Origin: Promethearchaeota archaeon
GTDB taxonomy: Archaea > Asgardarchaeota > Lokiarchaeia > Sigyniarchaeales > SOKP01
Direction of reading: 5' to 3'
Length of the DNA stretch: 18,070 bases
Assembly (NCBI GenBank): GCA_016839745.1
Contig: JAEOTS010000183.1
Coordinates: forward strand, 1 to 18,070
Shown here in pieces: positions 11,721 to 17,388 of this stretch (the stretch's first letter is position 1; each line of letters starts with the position of its first letter). The notes beneath the pieces are model-generated. The model saw only the letters and a list, made by a program, of their open reading frames with translations. It was not told where the DNA came from and searched no databases. The position numbers were made by a program, and so were the translations under genes.

Positions 11721-11735
11721 TTTTCTTTTTTTCTT
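11721..11735 (+). terminator. Oligo-T terminator in the convergent gap
   Basis: TTTTCTTTTTTTCTT just after the stop codon of the second hydrolase. Confidence 0.4.
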
Positions 11736-12966
11736 ATTTATCCTTCGGATGATTTGTTAAATTTCCAATAGGAACATATTTCTTCTTATCAATTTTTTGA
11801 AAAGACATAACCATTGCTGGTAGTGCTATCAATGCTACAATTATGCCTAACCAGTATGGTGGAAGTGTTGAGATAATAAGCGCCCCAGCTAAAGGTCCGA
11901 TGATTTGAGCTATGCTGTCTAATCCAGAAGAAAGTCCATTTATTTTACCTTGAATTTTTGGCGAAGCTGTTTGACTGATTTTGCTGTTCATAGGACCTCG
12001 AGTTAAGGAGGCAGCAAAACTAACAAACATGAATATAATCATAATCACAACGACATTTGAAGAAAAACCAATTAGAAAAAAACTAACAAAGAAAATTACC
12101 AAACCTAGTCGTATTGCGTTAGACTCCCCTAGTTTCTTTATAGTTGGTTTAAACAACGTGAACCTTACTCCTGCTCTAAAAATTCCAGATATCATAAACA
12201 CAAAAGAGACATCAAGAACACTAAGTTTGAGAACATTTACGGCAAAAAATGATAGTGAAGTCATAATAATAGTGAACGAAATAGTGTGAAACGCCCAAAG
12301 TACTAGCATGAAAAGAGCATTTTTATTCTCTTTAACTTTAAGCGTAATTTCAGTTTTAATCTTATGGTAGTGAAGTCTCTTTTCTTTAGGCCACGTTTCT
12401 TCCAACATAGACAAAGTTACAACAATCGTTATTACAGTTAATCCTGCTGCGAACAAACCAGGTCCTAAAATACCATCAAATAATGTAAAGAAAAATCCCC
12501 CAATTGCAGGTCCGAACAGACCAGCTAAAACATGTGCGATACCAACATTAGCCATCTGAATACCTCGATCTTTTGGTGGAACTTTATCACTTATGATTGC
12601 TTTAGCAATTGGAAAATTTCCTCCAAACATCCCATCAATCATACGTGCTATAATTAACATCCATAATGTGTTTGAAAAAGCTGTTAATACAAAAGCAAAA
12701 AGCGTTCCAAATTGAGAAATTAGTAGTAGCGGTTTCCTTCCATACTTATCGCTGAGTTTTGATAAAATGGGGCCAAATACAAAACCGAACATCGCATTTA
12801 CAGAAAATATCAACCCAATTACAATATCAGTAGTTCCGAAGATTCCCTTAAAAAATCCTATCAGCGGAAAAAGAATCGTGTAACCTAGAACATCGATAAA
12901 AATGGCAATCCATAATGGTGCCAACATTCGATATTTGAACAATTTTTTGTTGTTGTTTTCAGCCAT
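11734..12966 (-). CDS. MFS transporter, DHA1/TetA-like drug:H+ antiporter family
   Basis: About 12 TM helices; IFIDVLGYTILFP (TM1 Asp), motif A SKLSDKYGRKP, ARMIDGMFGG, AIISD, motif C GLFGPAIGG, QIIGPLAG. Confidence 0.92.
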   Translation of the reverse strand: MAENNNKKLFKYRMLAPLWIAIFIDVLGYTILFPLIGFFKGIFGTTDIVIGLIFSVNAMFGFVFGPILSKLSDKYGRKPLLLISQFGTLFAFVLTAFSNTLWMLIIARMIDGMFGGNFPIAKAIISDKVPPKDRGIQMANVGIAHVLAGLFGPAIGGFFFTLFDGILGPGLFAAGLTVITIVVTLSMLEETWPKEKRLHYHKIKTEITLKVKENKNALFMLVLWAFHTISFTIIMTSLSFFAVNVLKLSVLDVSFVFMISGIFRAGVRFTLFKPTIKKLGESNAIRLGLVIFFVSFFLIGFSSNVVVIMIIFMFVSFAASLTRGPMNSKISQTASPKIQGKINGLSSGLDSIAQIIGPLAGALIISTLPPYWLGIIVALIALPAMVMSFQKIDKKKYVPIGNLTNHPKDK

Positions 12967-13266
12967 AAATCAAAATCACATTTTAATTTTCCGGAAGAAT
13001 AAGAGAAAATAATAGTATTATTCCCAAAACTTAACGAATAAAATAGGTAATACCTATTAAACTATACTAAAAAACATTAAGAGCATTCCTTCCTCAGTCA
13101 CATATCTTCTATTCCAATAATTTTATATGGAGATACTGGGTGATTTATTTAGAGAAAAATATATTAAAATTTTATTGATCAAACCTACTATAAGATTGTA
13201 ATTACATAATTCAATAGAGTTATCTTATTTTTAAATTAAAAAAATGAATCGTAATTAATGATAAGA

Positions 13267-14394
13267 ATGGCTGAAACTTACGAGAATTTTATGATCTTTG
13301 GATTAGAAAGTACCGGTGAAAAAGTAAAATTAGACATATCAGAAGACGAATTTCGCGCCAATAACGGTCAAAACGTACTAGATTCTCACCAAGTATTAGT
13401 GATTGTTAAGGAAGATTTAAGGAGAATTTACATTTGGAAAGGCGTAAATTCACATGTTAGAAAAAAGTTTATAGCGTCTCGCATTGCTGCGGAATTACAA
13501 AACGATTTAGTTGTTAACGGACATTTTCATCGATGTAAGATTATATCCGTAGATCAAGGAGACGAACCTCTCGAATTTATGAGAGCTTTTGGGTTGAAAG
13601 CAACCGAAGCTCCGGATTTCTTAGAAAGGGATTCTAAAGAATTTAAAGAATTACATGTAACCTCTCTTAAGGAAATTGCAGAAATTAGTGATAAAAAAGT
13701 TCACGGATGGAAAGGACCACCTCCAACGCTTAATGGCAAGTTTGAATCTCCTGTAAGTGTTAAAAAAGAGGATAAGGAAATTTCACCTAAATCTAAACAA
13801 CCAACAAAACCTCCTAAGATTCACAATAAACATTTGATTGAAAAAATTGTGAATAATAAAGTTCCCGCCAATTTTAAAAGGCAAAATTTAATTCTAGGCA
13901 ATTTTCAAATATACGGAGCAGCAGTCAAAAAAGCAAAAGTTTTCGGAGAAGAAGTAGAAGAAACTGAATGGGAACCCGTGAACTCAATACCTGAAGGACC
14001 AATTGAACTTACCAATCGAACAATAAGACTTTATACCAATAGCAATTCAGGGACAATTGAAGGAATAGAAATACTCCAGAAACTAAAAATTCCCATAATC
14101 GAAGAAAAAGTAAGCGAAGAGAAGGAAGAAATAGATTACAATTCTTGGACAGTAAGCAAATTAAAACTCCATTGCAAAGAGAACAATATTCACGTTCCAT
14201 CAAACTATCGGAAAGCACAAATTATTAACCTCATTCTGAATGGACCTCCTCGAGAAAGCGCTGAACAATGGATTGATTATAACAAGTGGACGGTCAAACA
14301 ACTAAAAGAATATTGTAAAGAAAACAAAATTAAAGTACACTCAACCTATCGAAAAGCAGACTTCTTAAAACTCGTAAAAGAACATAAAAAATAA
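13267..14394 (+). CDS. Asgard-type gelsolin-domain protein with a central unknown domain and two C-terminal SAP/HeH/Rho-N-like repeats
   Basis: N-terminal gelsolin pattern LDSHQVLVIV....RIYIWKG.NS.VRKKFIASRIAAEL...IISVDQGDEP.EF..AF; C-terminal repeats DYN.WTV..LK..CKEN.I.V.S.YRKA....L. The alternative start is ATG 13258. Confidence 0.8.
   Translation: MAETYENFMIFGLESTGEKVKLDISEDEFRANNGQNVLDSHQVLVIVKEDLRRIYIWKGVNSHVRKKFIASRIAAELQNDLVVNGHFHRCKIISVDQGDEPLEFMRAFGLKATEAPDFLERDSKEFKELHVTSLKEIAEISDKKVHGWKGPPPTLNGKFESPVSVKKEDKEISPKSKQPTKPPKIHNKHLIEKIVNNKVPANFKRQNLILGNFQIYGAAVKKAKVFGEEVEETEWEPVNSIPEGPIELTNRTIRLYTNSNSGTIEGIEILQKLKIPIIEEKVSEEKEEIDYNSWTVSKLKLHCKENNIHVPSNYRKAQIINLILNGPPRESAEQWIDYNKWTVKQLKEYCKENKIKVHSTYRKADFLKLVKEHKK
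14131..14376 (+). repeat. Intragenic tandem duplication of a ~35-aa helix-extension-helix module (copies start at 14131 and 14272, period 141 nt)
   Basis: IDYNSWTVSKLKLHCKENNIHVPSNYRKAQIINLI vs IDYNKWTVKQLKEYCKENKIKVHSTYRKADFLKLV; similarity is also visible at DNA level (TGGAC-GT, AAAGA-AACAA-ATT, CTATCG-AAAGCA). Confidence 0.9.
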
Positions 14395-14427
14395 AAAAGA
14401 GAAATATAATTTTAATTTTTTTAAATA
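14395..14427. terminator. Probable bidirectional terminator between convergent genes
   Basis: An A-run directly after stop 14394 (a T-run on the - strand) and T-runs on the + strand at about 14410-14422. Confidence 0.4.
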
Positions 14428-17388
14428 TTATATTGGAACACGGGAAAAATAAGAAACACTCTCATCTAATTGATCTAAATACATCTTTCTTTTTCCAGGT
14501 AGAACTTTTTCTGTTAGAATCTTTGCTTTATCATAGCAAGTAGTTGCTTCCTCAAGCATTCCTAGACTTTTATAACATTTCGAAAGTTTTAAGAATGTGT
14601 GAAATGCAAACCATCCAATTGGATTCATCTCTAATGCTTGATAAAATTTTTCTATAGCTGCCTCGTACTTCCCTGAAAACATCAGAATTTCACCGTAAGT
14701 ATCGAAGAGATTCGCGTCACGCGGTTCTATTTCAATTGCTTTTTTAATTGTCTCCAAAGCTTCATCGAATTTTCCTAACTCACTAAGATATATAGATAAG
14801 TTGTTTAACATAGCTACCATTTCCGGGTAAATTTTAATACTTTCTCTAAGAAGTCTAACTCCTTCTGCTATTTTTCCCAACACATAATAAGAGAACGATT
14901 TCATCTGGCGAATTTCTTTATCATTCTGAGGAAATTTCTCAAAAAATTCATCGTAGAGCGCTAATACTTCGTCTTGCTTATCGCTATAAGTTAAATATAT
15001 GTGAGTTTTTGTACTATGAATATCAAAGTGCTCCGGACTTAATTCAATTGCTTTATCGATTGTTTTTATTGCCTCGTCAAAGCCATCTGTTTCGTTTAAT
15101 ATATAACTTTCCAGTTGATAATACCTGGACAACTTCTTCTCGCTTTGTTCCATTGCTTTTGCTTTCTGAAATTCTTCTCTAAATAATTCTTTATTAGCTT
15201 TACTTTCATCAAAATTGTAAACTATGTTGAATCCGTGAACTAATCCAGTAATAATATGAGAAAGTGGATGATTTGGATAGTGGAATCTAACCTTGCTGAC
15301 AATATCTAAAGCTTTTTCAAATTTCCCCCTTGCTACATATGAAAATGATAAAATTAAATACGCAGCAGTGTCAACTCGAGGATTGCCTTTAAGCAAATTG
15401 AACTCAACGGTCTGTTTAATCCAATCTTTTGCTTGCTTATACTTATGGGTTACCGTGTATAATATCGCTTTCATTATTGAGAGTTCTGAATCGTCAGGAT
15501 TCGAATCTATAAGTGAATTTATCAATTTTAAAGGTTCGTCATAGATTTTTGTACAGCAATCCGTCATACCCACTAGAAATTTAGTGCGATTTAGCGCAAA
15601 ATTATCTGGATAGTCTTCAATTATTTCATCGATGAGTTCTTGGGCTTTATCGTGATCGCAATTAATTAGAACTTGCGCTTTTTGGGAGATTAACAAGATA
15701 TTAAATGACATGTTCAAACCTAAATCAATAACATCCAACGCATCCTTGAATCTTCCCATCAAGAAATAAGTTATAGATTGAAAAAGATATCCTACATATT
15801 CGTTGGGATATTTCTCTATGATTTCATTAGTTAATTCTAGCGATTCTTCTAATTCTCCGTTATATGTTAAAGTTAAATCCTTAAGGATCATCAGTTCAAC
15901 ATCGTTTAAATTCTTAAGATTATCCTTAAGTAGATCGTTCACTTTCGATAAGTTTCCTTTCGCTAACTTTTTCTCAATCATAGCTAAAAATTCAGCATTC
16001 TTAGAAAAATACGCTTTCTTAAACTCATCCATGCGGATAAAATCTATTTTCGAGAAATAAATTATGTCCAATGTATCAAAGATCCTATTATGCAAAAAGT
16101 AATACGATTCGTTGTCTACAGGTTTGTTTATCGTACTCGCCGTCTCCGATGTTCCAAAACTCTGAATTACCTCGAATACATTTTGAAACGCTATACCCTT
16201 TATTTTATCCGTATGGTTGATTAAACTCTTCTCCGTTTCAAACGTATAGGCTAAATGTTCAATATATTCGATTAAAAATTTCCGGAGTGCCGACTTCAAA
16301 TTTTCATTGAATAAATTACTACACAGATCTTCTAAAGCGTCGTCCAGTAACTGGTTGATATCAGGGGCATCGTATTTATCTCCATTTTTTTTCTGGAACT
16401 TGCTCAAGTATGTGAATTTTCTAATGTAGTCCTCGATAATTACGCTTAACATCTTGTCTAATCTCTCTTCAGCCTGAATATAATACGTAATTTTATCATC
16501 TACTTTTAGTTTAAAGAATTTAATAGCATATAACTTATCTTCCACGATTTTTTCTATAAAAAATTTTAATGTCGTCAGTTTTATATCATACTCTAACGCA
16601 AAATCATTTGCTGTTATGTAATTAGGGTAGTTGTCAGGATGGTTTATTGATAAGAATAGCAAAATTTTATCAAAATCTTCCTCGTCCGATAAGGTAGCCT
16701 CTACCTTAGTATAATCTAACCTTAAAACCATATTTAAGAAACGATATCGAATTTCGTTGTCGTCTATTTCGTATTCGTCAAAGAATTTGCCTACCTTATC
16801 TGTAATAACTTCAACCCTTTTAATTTCTTCGTCTAATATCGATTGGCGATCTAAATCGTACTTCTTTAACATTTTGAAGTATTCAGTTTCACCGTCCCTC
16901 GTAATACTATACTCGCGATTATTTTTTTCAATAAAATCTTTGTCTAATAAAATATTCAAGTTTTTTGATAATGAAGATTGATTGATTGAAAGAGGGGGCT
17001 CAAGAAAATCTGACCACTTACAATAGGCATTGTTATAAAGCATCCAGAGAATCCAGTGATCGTATTCCCTAGTTTTTGTAATAACCTCAGGAGGATAATT
17101 CAAAGAAGTCTCTAATGTATCTTTAACCTGTAACTCAGTGTATTGTCTACGACCTTCAGAAGTTATCCTATACTCTCCCTTCTTTTCCTTCTCAATAAGA
17201 CCATTATTTTTTAAAATTGTCAGATATTTTGACAAAGTTGCAGGGCTTATATTAACAGGTTTAGACTTGAATTCTGACCAAGTGCAAGATTCGTTGTTAT
17301 AGAGCATCCAGAGTATAATATATTCAAAATCTTTGTTGATTTTCATAGGTGTAATTATCCCTTCAGGTGGGTATTTTGTGATACTCAT
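14428..17388 (-). CDS. Multi winged-helix (wHTH) + tetratricopeptide repeat (TPR) protein, putative transcriptional regulator
   Basis: Two clear N-terminal wHTH repeats (ISPATLSKYLTILKNNGLIEK...YRITSEG; INQSSLSKNLNILLDKDFIEK...YSITRDG) and many C-terminal TPRs (e.g. MLNNLSIYLSELGKFDEALETIKKAIEIEP; LFDTYGEILMFSGKYEAAIEKFYQALEMNP). Confidence 0.88.
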   Translation of the reverse strand: MSITKYPPEGIITPMKINKDFEYIILWMLYNNESCTWSEFKSKPVNISPATLSKYLTILKNNGLIEKEKKGEYRITSEGRRQYTELQVKDTLETSLNYPPEVITKTREYDHWILWMLYNNAYCKWSDFLEPPLSINQSSLSKNLNILLDKDFIEKNNREYSITRDGETEYFKMLKKYDLDRQSILDEEIKRVEVITDKVGKFFDEYEIDDNEIRYRFLNMVLRLDYTKVEATLSDEEDFDKILLFLSINHPDNYPNYITANDFALEYDIKLTTLKFFIEKIVEDKLYAIKFFKLKVDDKITYYIQAEERLDKMLSVIIEDYIRKFTYLSKFQKKNGDKYDAPDINQLLDDALEDLCSNLFNENLKSALRKFLIEYIEHLAYTFETEKSLINHTDKIKGIAFQNVFEVIQSFGTSETASTINKPVDNESYYFLHNRIFDTLDIIYFSKIDFIRMDEFKKAYFSKNAEFLAMIEKKLAKGNLSKVNDLLKDNLKNLNDVELMILKDLTLTYNGELEESLELTNEIIEKYPNEYVGYLFQSITYFLMGRFKDALDVIDLGLNMSFNILLISQKAQVLINCDHDKAQELIDEIIEDYPDNFALNRTKFLVGMTDCCTKIYDEPLKLINSLIDSNPDDSELSIMKAILYTVTHKYKQAKDWIKQTVEFNLLKGNPRVDTAAYLILSFSYVARGKFEKALDIVSKVRFHYPNHPLSHIITGLVHGFNIVYNFDESKANKELFREEFQKAKAMEQSEKKLSRYYQLESYILNETDGFDEAIKTIDKAIELSPEHFDIHSTKTHIYLTYSDKQDEVLALYDEFFEKFPQNDKEIRQMKSFSYYVLGKIAEGVRLLRESIKIYPEMVAMLNNLSIYLSELGKFDEALETIKKAIEIEPRDANLFDTYGEILMFSGKYEAAIEKFYQALEMNPIGWFAFHTFLKLSKCYKSLGMLEEATTCYDKAKILTEKVLPGKRKMYLDQLDESVSYFSRVPI
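16867..17373 (-). repeat. Intragenic duplication of the wHTH domain (aa ~6-86 and ~98-174)
   Basis: Shared YPPE.I, ILWMLYNN..C.WS.F, LSK.L.IL, IEK, EY.IT..G...Y. Confidence 0.9.

Follow-up and report, generated by a model that had tools for sequence, protein, structure and literature searches.

Among prokaryotes, a regulated actin cytoskeleton of the eukaryotic kind is known only from the Asgard archaea. Here we describe a gelsolin-type gene, termed GelX, at positions 13267..14394 of an 18,070-nucleotide stretch of DNA (the window; contig JAEOTS010000183.1 of assembly GCA_016839745.1) from a Promethearchaeota archaeon of the class Lokiarchaeia, order Sigyniarchaeales. Its predicted product joins one gelsolin-homology domain to a folded beta domain and two helix-extension-helix (HeH) modules of the HeH/SAP/LEM/Rho_N clan.

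Three architectures of Asgard gelsolins, ProGel, 1DGelX and 2DGel, have been described (Akil et al. 2020; PMC7444086). The Thor 1DGelX protein (SMTZ1-83) binds rabbit actin with a Kd of 7.7 uM; it acts as a nucleator at low ratio, and its severing of filaments does not depend on Ca2+ (PMC7444086). Its domain X, for which a coiled coil was modelled, was described as unknown and was not expressible alone, and GFP-1DGelX in U2OS cells was concentrated around the nuclear membrane and the endoplasmic reticulum region (PMC7444086). Two 1DGelX genes are reported for MK-D1 and three for Loki GC14_75 (PMC9433394). In a motility study of L. ossiferum nine gelsolin-homology proteins were found, five of which co-immunoprecipitated with Lokiactin (Nature 2026; PMC13716822). 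In its preprint B35_GelX, which clusters with Thor_GelX, was described as a single gelsolin-homology domain accompanied by 'disordered' regions and by an X domain 'of unknown function' (bioRxiv 10.1101/2025.11.30.690169).

In the protein encoded in the window, as in 1DGelX/GelX, one N-terminal gelsolin-homology domain is joined through a long linker to the X region at the C-terminus. By its core of gelsolin domain, linker and beta domain it is assigned, from sequence, to the published Asgard 1DGelX/GelX class. A single gelsolin domain stands at the N-terminus and is followed by a non-gelsolin C-terminal extension, and its X is homologous to the gelsolin-plus-X proteins of three closed genomes of a sister family and of Odin LCB_4. 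It differs from these sister-family and Odin proteins by two additional HeH/SAP modules and is a lineage-specific variant of the known GelX family. Whereas X has been regarded in the published work as unknown, coiled-coil or disordered, it is resolved here into a predicted folded, pan-Asgard beta domain and lineage-specific HeH modules. The sequence-only reading of the window had taken the whole architecture as uncharacterised. Its gelsolin-plus-X part is the published 1DGelX/GelX, whereas in the searchable literature no paper joins Asgard, gelsolin and SAP or HeH. New with respect to that literature are the assignment of X to a folded beta domain with HeH/SAP modules and the occurrence of a common HeH on a kleisin and on topoisomerase VI-B.

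Conserved blocks of the GelX protein

The GelX gene is a single uninterrupted open reading frame (ORF; 13258/13267..14394, + strand), as seen in the ORF list and the translation, and its homologues start with the Met encoded at 13267 or with the residue before it. Database searches with the 375-residue product gave 524 homologues at E<=1e-3. The best 120 of these 524 are full-length, are 59-82% identical, come from Lokiarchaeial metagenome-assembled genomes (MAGs) and are labelled 'hypothetical protein'; a scan of NCBIfam gave no model matching the protein. An alignment of 27 homologues with 59-82% identity (A1) showed four conserved blocks, residues 5-115, 116-156, 186-276 and the repeats 288-326 and 335-375, separated by variable linkers. 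This four-block conservation is far beyond chance. The features of the gene are as follows.

13267..14394, + strand: whole coding sequence, 375 residues and stop; alternative ATG at 13258
13267..13611, + strand: gelsolin-homology domain, residues 1-115; phmmer and Foldseek matches to 7c2f_B; invariant W57-x-G59 and long-helix VRKKFI (64-69)
13612..13734, + strand: conserved segment, residues 116-156; short helix 124-134, then K-x-V-H-x-W-x-G-P-P-P
13735..13821, + strand: Pro/Lys-rich linker, residues 157-185; variable length, poorly conserved, net charge +4, predicted local distance difference test score (pLDDT) <50
13822..14094, + strand: middle beta domain, residues 186-276; modelled as one helix and five long antiparallel strands; invariant P200..KRQN..G211
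14095..14127, + strand: acidic spacer, residues 277-287; net charge -4 for the 277-289 block, low pLDDT
14128..14244, + strand: HeH/SAP module 1, residues 288-326; best stretch for Pfam HeH 295-322, 23.7 bits alone; net charge +3 (290-326)
14269..14391, + strand: HeH/SAP module 2, residues 335-375; best stretches for Pfam SAP, Ish1 and Rho_N within 337-373; net charge +7 (337-375)

The sequence-only reading had described an N-terminal gelsolin-type domain, a Pro/Lys-rich linker, a compact middle domain and two SAP/HeH-like repeats, and had proposed HHpred/Foldseek searches with the first and the last of these and a survey of Asgard genomes for the same architecture. All four elements were recovered: the linker is present at residues ~148-185, and the two domains and the repeats held up in the comparisons described below.

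The gelsolin domain

When the protein was compared with all PDB chains by phmmer, only gelsolins were matched. The top match was chain 7c2f_B, the Thorarchaeota ProGel (E 8.6e-8, residues 35-113), followed by 2DGel3 (E 0.0018), and with the GelX family profile the similarity of the gelsolin domain to a solved structure reached E 1.8e-6. An AlphaFold2 (AF2) model of the whole protein was built from 27 sequences, and the gelsolin domain was modelled with a pLDDT of 66-83. In a Foldseek search of the model against the PDB, all 19 matches at E<=0.001 were gelsolin-family domains. Chain 7c2f_B was again on top, with a template-modelling score (TM) of 0.81 by target and a root-mean-square deviation of 2.7 A over 100 columns, and was followed by Asgard 2DGels, villin D6 and gelsolin G1-G6. 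The predicted fold is closest to the Asgard ProGel and 2DGel. No second gelsolin domain was found in the GelX protein by block hidden Markov models (HMMs).

The best-conserved stretch of A1 is the start of the long helix, the invariant V64-R-K-K-F-I69, together with W57-x-G59. Nine residues after W57 stands Lys66, which is invariant in the 27 homologues and aligns with the Glu of the 2DGel3 motif 'AREKF'; the 2DGel of the same genome also has Glu at this place. In Ca2+-regulated gelsolins the type-II site has a Glu at W+9, which we take to be Glu97 of human gelsolin G1. This Glu is missing in GelX. With Lys66 in its place, no Ca2+ switch is expected, as for Thor 1DGelX.

The closest solved structures, ProGel (7c2f) and the 2DGels (7c2g, 7c2h, 7whg, 7whf), have the gelsolin fold and the actin-contacting long helix in common with the window protein. 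ProGel differs in that it is the domain alone and a very weak actin binder, whereas the window protein has a tail of 260 residues. The 2DGels have two domains and Ca2+ sites, whereas the window protein has one domain and the Lys for the type-II Glu. The genome has its own Lokiactin gene (L103:1474-2616), and Lokiactin is 88-100% identical across the order.

Two near-identical two-domain gelsolins, on open frames of 344 and 353 residues, are also present in this genome (G000:C74:19320-19820 and G000:C23:1283-1789; L001, L002), each with a zinc-ribbon-like tail of four Cys. They lie in near-duplicate contigs with the same neighbours and may be a strain duplication in the MAG, for which the contamination estimate is 5.8%.

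The X region contains a conserved beta domain

The middle part of the protein, residues 183-290, was modelled alone by AF2 with 90 diverse homologues (A2). The pLDDT was 86, with a core of more than 93, and the domain of residues 186-276 is conserved. As a family it is acidic, like the gelsolin domain. Since this core is predicted to be folded and is conserved, the core of X would be neither a coiled coil nor disordered.

Known folds were searched for in several ways. Foldseek with the middle domain against the PDB gave a best E of 0.25, and among the 48,161 chains compared by VIA-align no Z exceeded 3.8, the rows being weak Cache-, PAS-, GAF- and roadblock-like ones. A second gelsolin or cofilin domain, or another known fold, was considered for this domain and rejected; no gelsolin was among the best 50 VIA-align rows and nothing was found under E 0.25 with Foldseek. 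An ESM Atlas feature search started from the homologue P0017 yielded nothing but Asgard hypothetical proteins with a score of 0.80, which is chance level. In the model, the folded core of X is a conserved beta domain, and it has no recognisable relative in the fold searches; its fold is left unassigned and is not necessarily a new one.

Between the gelsolin domain and the linker, the segment 116-156 has invariant residues at E125, W148 and P153 and was modelled with low confidence except for the helix. The block HMM for this segment matched only the cluster with two HeH modules. The invariant W-x-G-P-P-P (residues 148-153, window positions 13708-13725) could be a docking site of the proline-motif type (profilin-, SH3- or EVH1-like). 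Alternatively, this segment could replace a C-terminal GelX peptide that has been lost.

The HeH modules and their other carriers

Modules 1 and 2 are identical at 21 of 39 residues (54%). For the whole protein, four Pfam models scored above their cut-offs, each with two stretches: HeH (37.8 against a cut-off of 28.9), SAP (32.5 against 23.9), Ish1 (32.9 against 26.6) and Rho_N (26.0 against 24.9). The assignment of the modules is at the level of the clan. Single HeH copies score 20.6-23.7 bits, which is under the Pfam cut-off, and one-HeH orthologues therefore carry no Pfam label. In the AF2 model, DSSP assigned helices to residues 296-305 and 316-325 of the first module and to 343-352 and 363-374 of the second, with an extension of about 10 residues between the helices of each pair and a pLDDT of 77-87. 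The family-mean charges of the two modules are +3.4 and +3.7 with a pI of about 9.2, whereas the gelsolin and beta domains are acidic. A PDB sequence search with the HeH tail gave chance-level matches only, a malaria surface protein at E 7.5 with the tail alone and a Mu-like prophage protein at E 0.6 with the family profile, and thus recovered no solved HeH or SAP protein. Direct binding to DNA is the usual activity of SAP and HeH modules. An R/K pair is invariant in each of the two modules (R315/K316 and R362/K363).

Other proteins with this HeH subtype were searched for with a lineage HeH HMM, which was run over all six-frame ORFs of the genome (3.5 Mb, 89% complete). There were five carriers, GelX (matched twice) and four other proteins, and nothing else was above noise. 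The four are listed here.

G000:C47:12895-13905 (L013:1447-2457): kleisin-type protein, 337 residues; HeH at the N-terminus (L013:1474-1596); gene between the smc 3' end and scpB
G000:C47:25955-29362 (L131:1956-5363): topoisomerase VI-B, 1136 residues; HeH at residues 969-1003 (L131:4851-4970), after the transducer domain (94.9 bits)
G000:C161:27014-28288 (L011:346-1620): GIFT-domain protein, 425 residues; IFT52-type GIFT / ABC_transp_aux-like; HeH at the C-terminus
G000:C57:11631-12542 (L016:694-1605; -): Rho_N and SWIM-like protein, 304 residues; weaker carrier with an N-terminal Rho_N/SAP-type module, 33.1 bits

The neighbours of the kleisin-type gene were identified as smc by TIGR02169 and as scpB by PF04079 (48.8 bits). 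No Pfam ScpA match was obtained for the 337-residue protein, so its kleisin identity rests on the gene position and on the annotation by the Joint Genome Institute (JGI), where many close homologues are named 'Rec8/ScpA/Scc1 (kleisin family)'. The HeH of GelX and that of the kleisin-type protein matched each other in BLASTP with E 3e-8 and 5e-7. All carriers have a common W-T-V/I-x-x-L-[KR] ... RK-x-x-I-I pattern (alignment A4), and a Cys is conserved in most HeH modules of these unrelated proteins.

The occurrence of the subtype was then followed in a sample of 60 further genomes of the class, each at least 90% complete, which are kin and not independent. It was present in 49 of the 53 sampled genomes of the own GTDB family (f1), with none among the four of its genus g2; in three other families of the class it was found in 0 of 3, 0 of 2 and 1 of 2 genomes. 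The ORFs in which it recurs are of ~310-380, ~335, ~425 and ~1100-1150 residues. Among the searched genomes the HeH subtype is almost entirely restricted to its own GTDB family.

Some observations on the carriers may be added. Certain homologues of the kleisin-type protein are ~400-410 residues long and have several HeH/SAP matches. Topoisomerase VI-B is unusually long in this genome, and HeH-bearing ORFs of ~1100-1150 residues recur across the family. The GIFT-domain carrier is conserved in relatives as ORFs of ~420-437 residues. In the SWIM-like carrier, the Cys/His pattern CDCRVGSNMGFCNHFW looks like a SWIM zinc finger.

Distribution and origin of the HeH tail

A profile search of 1.84 billion representatives yielded 446 relatives, and the best 150 of these were classified with HMMs made from the A1 blocks. 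Among these 150, a gelsolin and a middle domain were found in 47 representatives (50% clustering), a gelsolin domain, a middle domain and one HeH in 17, with 12 further fragments, and two middle domains in 3; two HeH modules were seen only in the cluster of the GelX protein itself. The multi-HeH proteins from the profile search had no other informative Pfam domain.

In the phylum, 365 of 400 genomes match the GelX protein at E<=1e-5; for the weaker matches outside the class, the covered part of the protein is not listed. Among the matches listed, those that run through the first HeH (query 1-324) are all in family f1, where 133 of 134 genomes have a match to the protein. Full-length two-HeH matches, with at least 62% identity, were found in 13 of the 41 genomes of the own genus. 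A one-HeH orthologue of the same genus (L031) has kept the same two neighbours, an MFS transporter gene and a gene for a winged helix-turn-helix and tetratricopeptide repeat (wHTH-TPR) protein, and the second HeH therefore arose by tandem duplication in place.

The core is found without the tail in other lineages. Three closed genomes of the sister family f3 (6.0, 4.4 and 4.3 Mb) encode proteins of 337-347 residues with a gelsolin domain, a long K/E linker and the beta domain, which match the profile positions 2-198 and 125-291. Two of their tails were read; both are basic, end in ...RTLKAIPKGN and ...RELKKIPSS and have no HeH. Likewise, WEU39881.1 of Odin LCB_4 is a gelsolin domain and a beta domain without HeH. 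The HeH tail is a lineage addition to the GelX core.

A wide Asgard spread of the gelsolin-X-HeH order, as the NCBI labels (Thor, Hod, Hermod, Odin) would have it, was rejected, as three of the MAGs map to the own GTDB family or genus. These are L046, L033 and L079 (JBHL* MAGs), titled Thor-, Hod- and Odinarchaeota, whose GelX loci correspond to the G197, G204 and G256 places within that family or genus. L040, labelled Hermodarchaeota, is of the same submission series; the mapping covered the other three MAGs. The taxon labels of the JBHL* records are misleading and unfit for distribution claims.

A possible role at the chromosome

We tentatively read GelX as an actin regulator of the GelX type with a chromosome-directed tail, which could act as a Ca2+-independent capper or severer at the nucleoid; the case is finely balanced and falls a little short of even. 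Its parts differ in strength. The gelsolin domain very probably binds Lokiactin, and targeting to the nucleoid or to DNA by the HeH modules is slightly favoured. That the two activities together make up the physiological function may be so, at somewhat under an even chance. In this scheme, the invariant long helix of the gelsolin domain would enter the barbed-end cleft of Lokiactin, like ProGel on rabbit actin (7c2f). The gelsolin domain, helped by the X region, would sever and/or cap filaments without Ca2+ control, like Thor 1DGelX. The HeH pair on its flexible linkers would bind chromosomal DNA or a chromatin component, which we infer because the subtype is present on two DNA machines and is basic in charge. 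In this way the nucleoid would retain the capped or severed ends of filaments, or would be the place where severing is concentrated, and two HeH modules might raise the avidity over that of one-HeH orthologues. The sequence-only reading had proposed a possible tether of actin to the chromosome or RNA, and this idea gains indirect support from the basic charge of both modules and from the occurrence of the subtype on the kleisin and on topoisomerase VI-B. A broader proposal is that a 'chromosome address' in the form of a common HeH arose in one family of Lokiarchaeia and was placed on a gelsolin-type capper as well as on topoisomerase VI-B and the SMC kleisin, in functional analogy to ParM/ParR and to eukaryotic SAP/LEM tethers; this is improbable.

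Eukaryotic proteins offer parallels for such an address. Heh1/Heh2/MAN1, SAF-A and MRTF/myocardin have a helix-extension-helix module (Pfam HeH, SAP, Ish1) and the idea of chromatin addressing in common with the window protein. Unlike the eukaryotic HeH/LEM/SAP proteins, however, the window protein has no transmembrane segment, no RPEL and no LEM-specific features. The homology is at the clan level only, and the subtype is archaeal and lineage-specific. The likeness to eukaryotic LEM tethers is one of analogy and not of shown descent. To the ParM/ParR-parC system, where ParR is a ribbon-helix-helix DNA binder capping ParM, there is a functional analogy only, that of an adaptor holding an actin-like filament end on DNA; the proteins are unrelated.

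Several observations weigh against the chromosome-directed reading. The likeness to Thor 1DGelX is by published description. The gelsolin domain scored 16.9 bits with Pfam PF00626, under the cut-off of 21 (20 bits in the genome scan), so that its assignment as a gelsolin is based on the fold and on Asgard relatives of proven structure; a PF00626 match is precomputed for several close homologues. Two of the four other HeH carriers, the GIFT-domain and the SWIM-like protein, have no known DNA role, and HeH-clan modules also bind proteins or RNA-handling partners. As the sister-family and Odin GelX carry no HeH, the module is not needed for the core activity. Finally, the MFS and wHTH-TPR neighbours of GelX give no functional clue, since their synteny extends only over close relatives and the strands alternate.

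For 1DGelX itself, a second actin-binding (side-binding) site has been proposed in the C-terminal extension, and short bundles were seen (PMC7444086). The two HeH modules of the window protein might likewise be a second (and third) actin-filament site in the manner of the villin headpiece, serving side-binding, severing and bundling and not DNA. The modules are basic and actin is acidic, and in villin-type proteins, too, gelsolin domain(s) are joined by a flexible linker to a small helical module at the C-terminus, which adds a second binding activity. Villin-type proteins have six gelsolin domains instead of one, however, and the terminal modules of the window protein belong to the HeH/SAP clan; no villin headpiece (Pfam VHP) was found in the Pfam scan at E<=10. 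Since GelX is without HeH in the sister lineages, another part of X must be responsible for the extra actin activity of the class, and the same module is present on the kleisin and on topoisomerase VI-B, neither with a known actin role. We therefore regard a headpiece-like function of the modules as unlikely.

LEM binds BAF, and in a similar way the HeH subtype might dock one lineage-specific protein or RNA partner, which would be a common scaffold for GelX, the kleisin, topoisomerase VI-B and the GIFT-domain protein. The subtype varies very little among its unrelated carriers, with the Cys conserved in most, its near-confinement to one family fits co-evolution with one partner, and the two carriers without a known DNA function are accommodated. 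Against this, no candidate partner was identified, and two of the carriers are DNA enzymes, for which direct DNA binding is the simpler reading; we find a protein or RNA address rather unlikely. A plain cytoplasmic severer, in which the HeH pair is neutral or autoregulatory, its basic modules folding on the acidic domains, with no targeting, is more doubtful still. The tail charges (+3 and +7) do complement the acidic beta domain of the family, the whole-protein AF2 model has no fixed inter-domain packing (predicted TM score 0.32), and C-terminal elements are commonly lost and gained in the family. However, both HeH copies are strongly conserved in the 27 homologues with many invariant positions, and HeH recurs on the same protein families throughout the GTDB family, which points to a function that is shared and under selection.

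The chromosome-directed reading amounts to a cheaply testable hypothesis, in which the capping or severing of actin is directed to the chromosome in some Lokiarchaeia. Should it hold, this would be the first molecular link of archaeal actin to DNA and would bear on how the coupling of cytoskeleton and chromatin originated ahead of the nucleus. Should it fail, a protein family that is widespread and abundant in Asgard archaea would still be better annotated.

C-terminal peptides and a paralogue

A strongly conserved peptide, [KR][KR]xLPx[IV]P, stands at the C-terminus of many GelX proteins, whether or not they carry HeH, and K/S and acidic residues often come after it (for example RRDLPKIPSSD, KRKLPEIPKA). 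It was seen in the representatives P0126-P0175 and at L096:1492-2532, L097:1105-2100 (-), L006:67-1005 and L040:3619-4806. The peptide conforms to the class-I SH3-ligand pattern +xLPxhP and is similar, too, to the WH2-like LKK[IV]. More distant GelX proteins, including that of Odin, end in L-S-D-L-V-D-F-F and a Lys tail. The window GelX ends with neither of the two; it has the subfamily-specific W-x-G-P-P-P.

The same genome also encodes a GelX paralogue of 313 residues with a gelsolin and a beta domain and no HeH (G000:C120:100-933; L006:67-1005), which ends in ...RRELPNVPSSKD. A convergent gene for a HEAT-repeat/zinc-ribbon protein adjoins it in L006, and the same neighbour lies beside a one-HeH GelX in L040.

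The GelX locus

In the window, GelX is flanked by the MFS transporter gene and by the wHTH-TPR gene, whose product has 986 residues; both are on the opposite strand. An AT-rich spacer of 290 nucleotides lies upstream of GelX. The order of alpha/beta-hydrolase gene(s), MFS (-), GelX (+) and wHTH-TPR (-), which spans the window positions 11734-17388, is kept in about a dozen related MAGs (L019-L031) and holds for one-HeH and two-HeH GelX alike.

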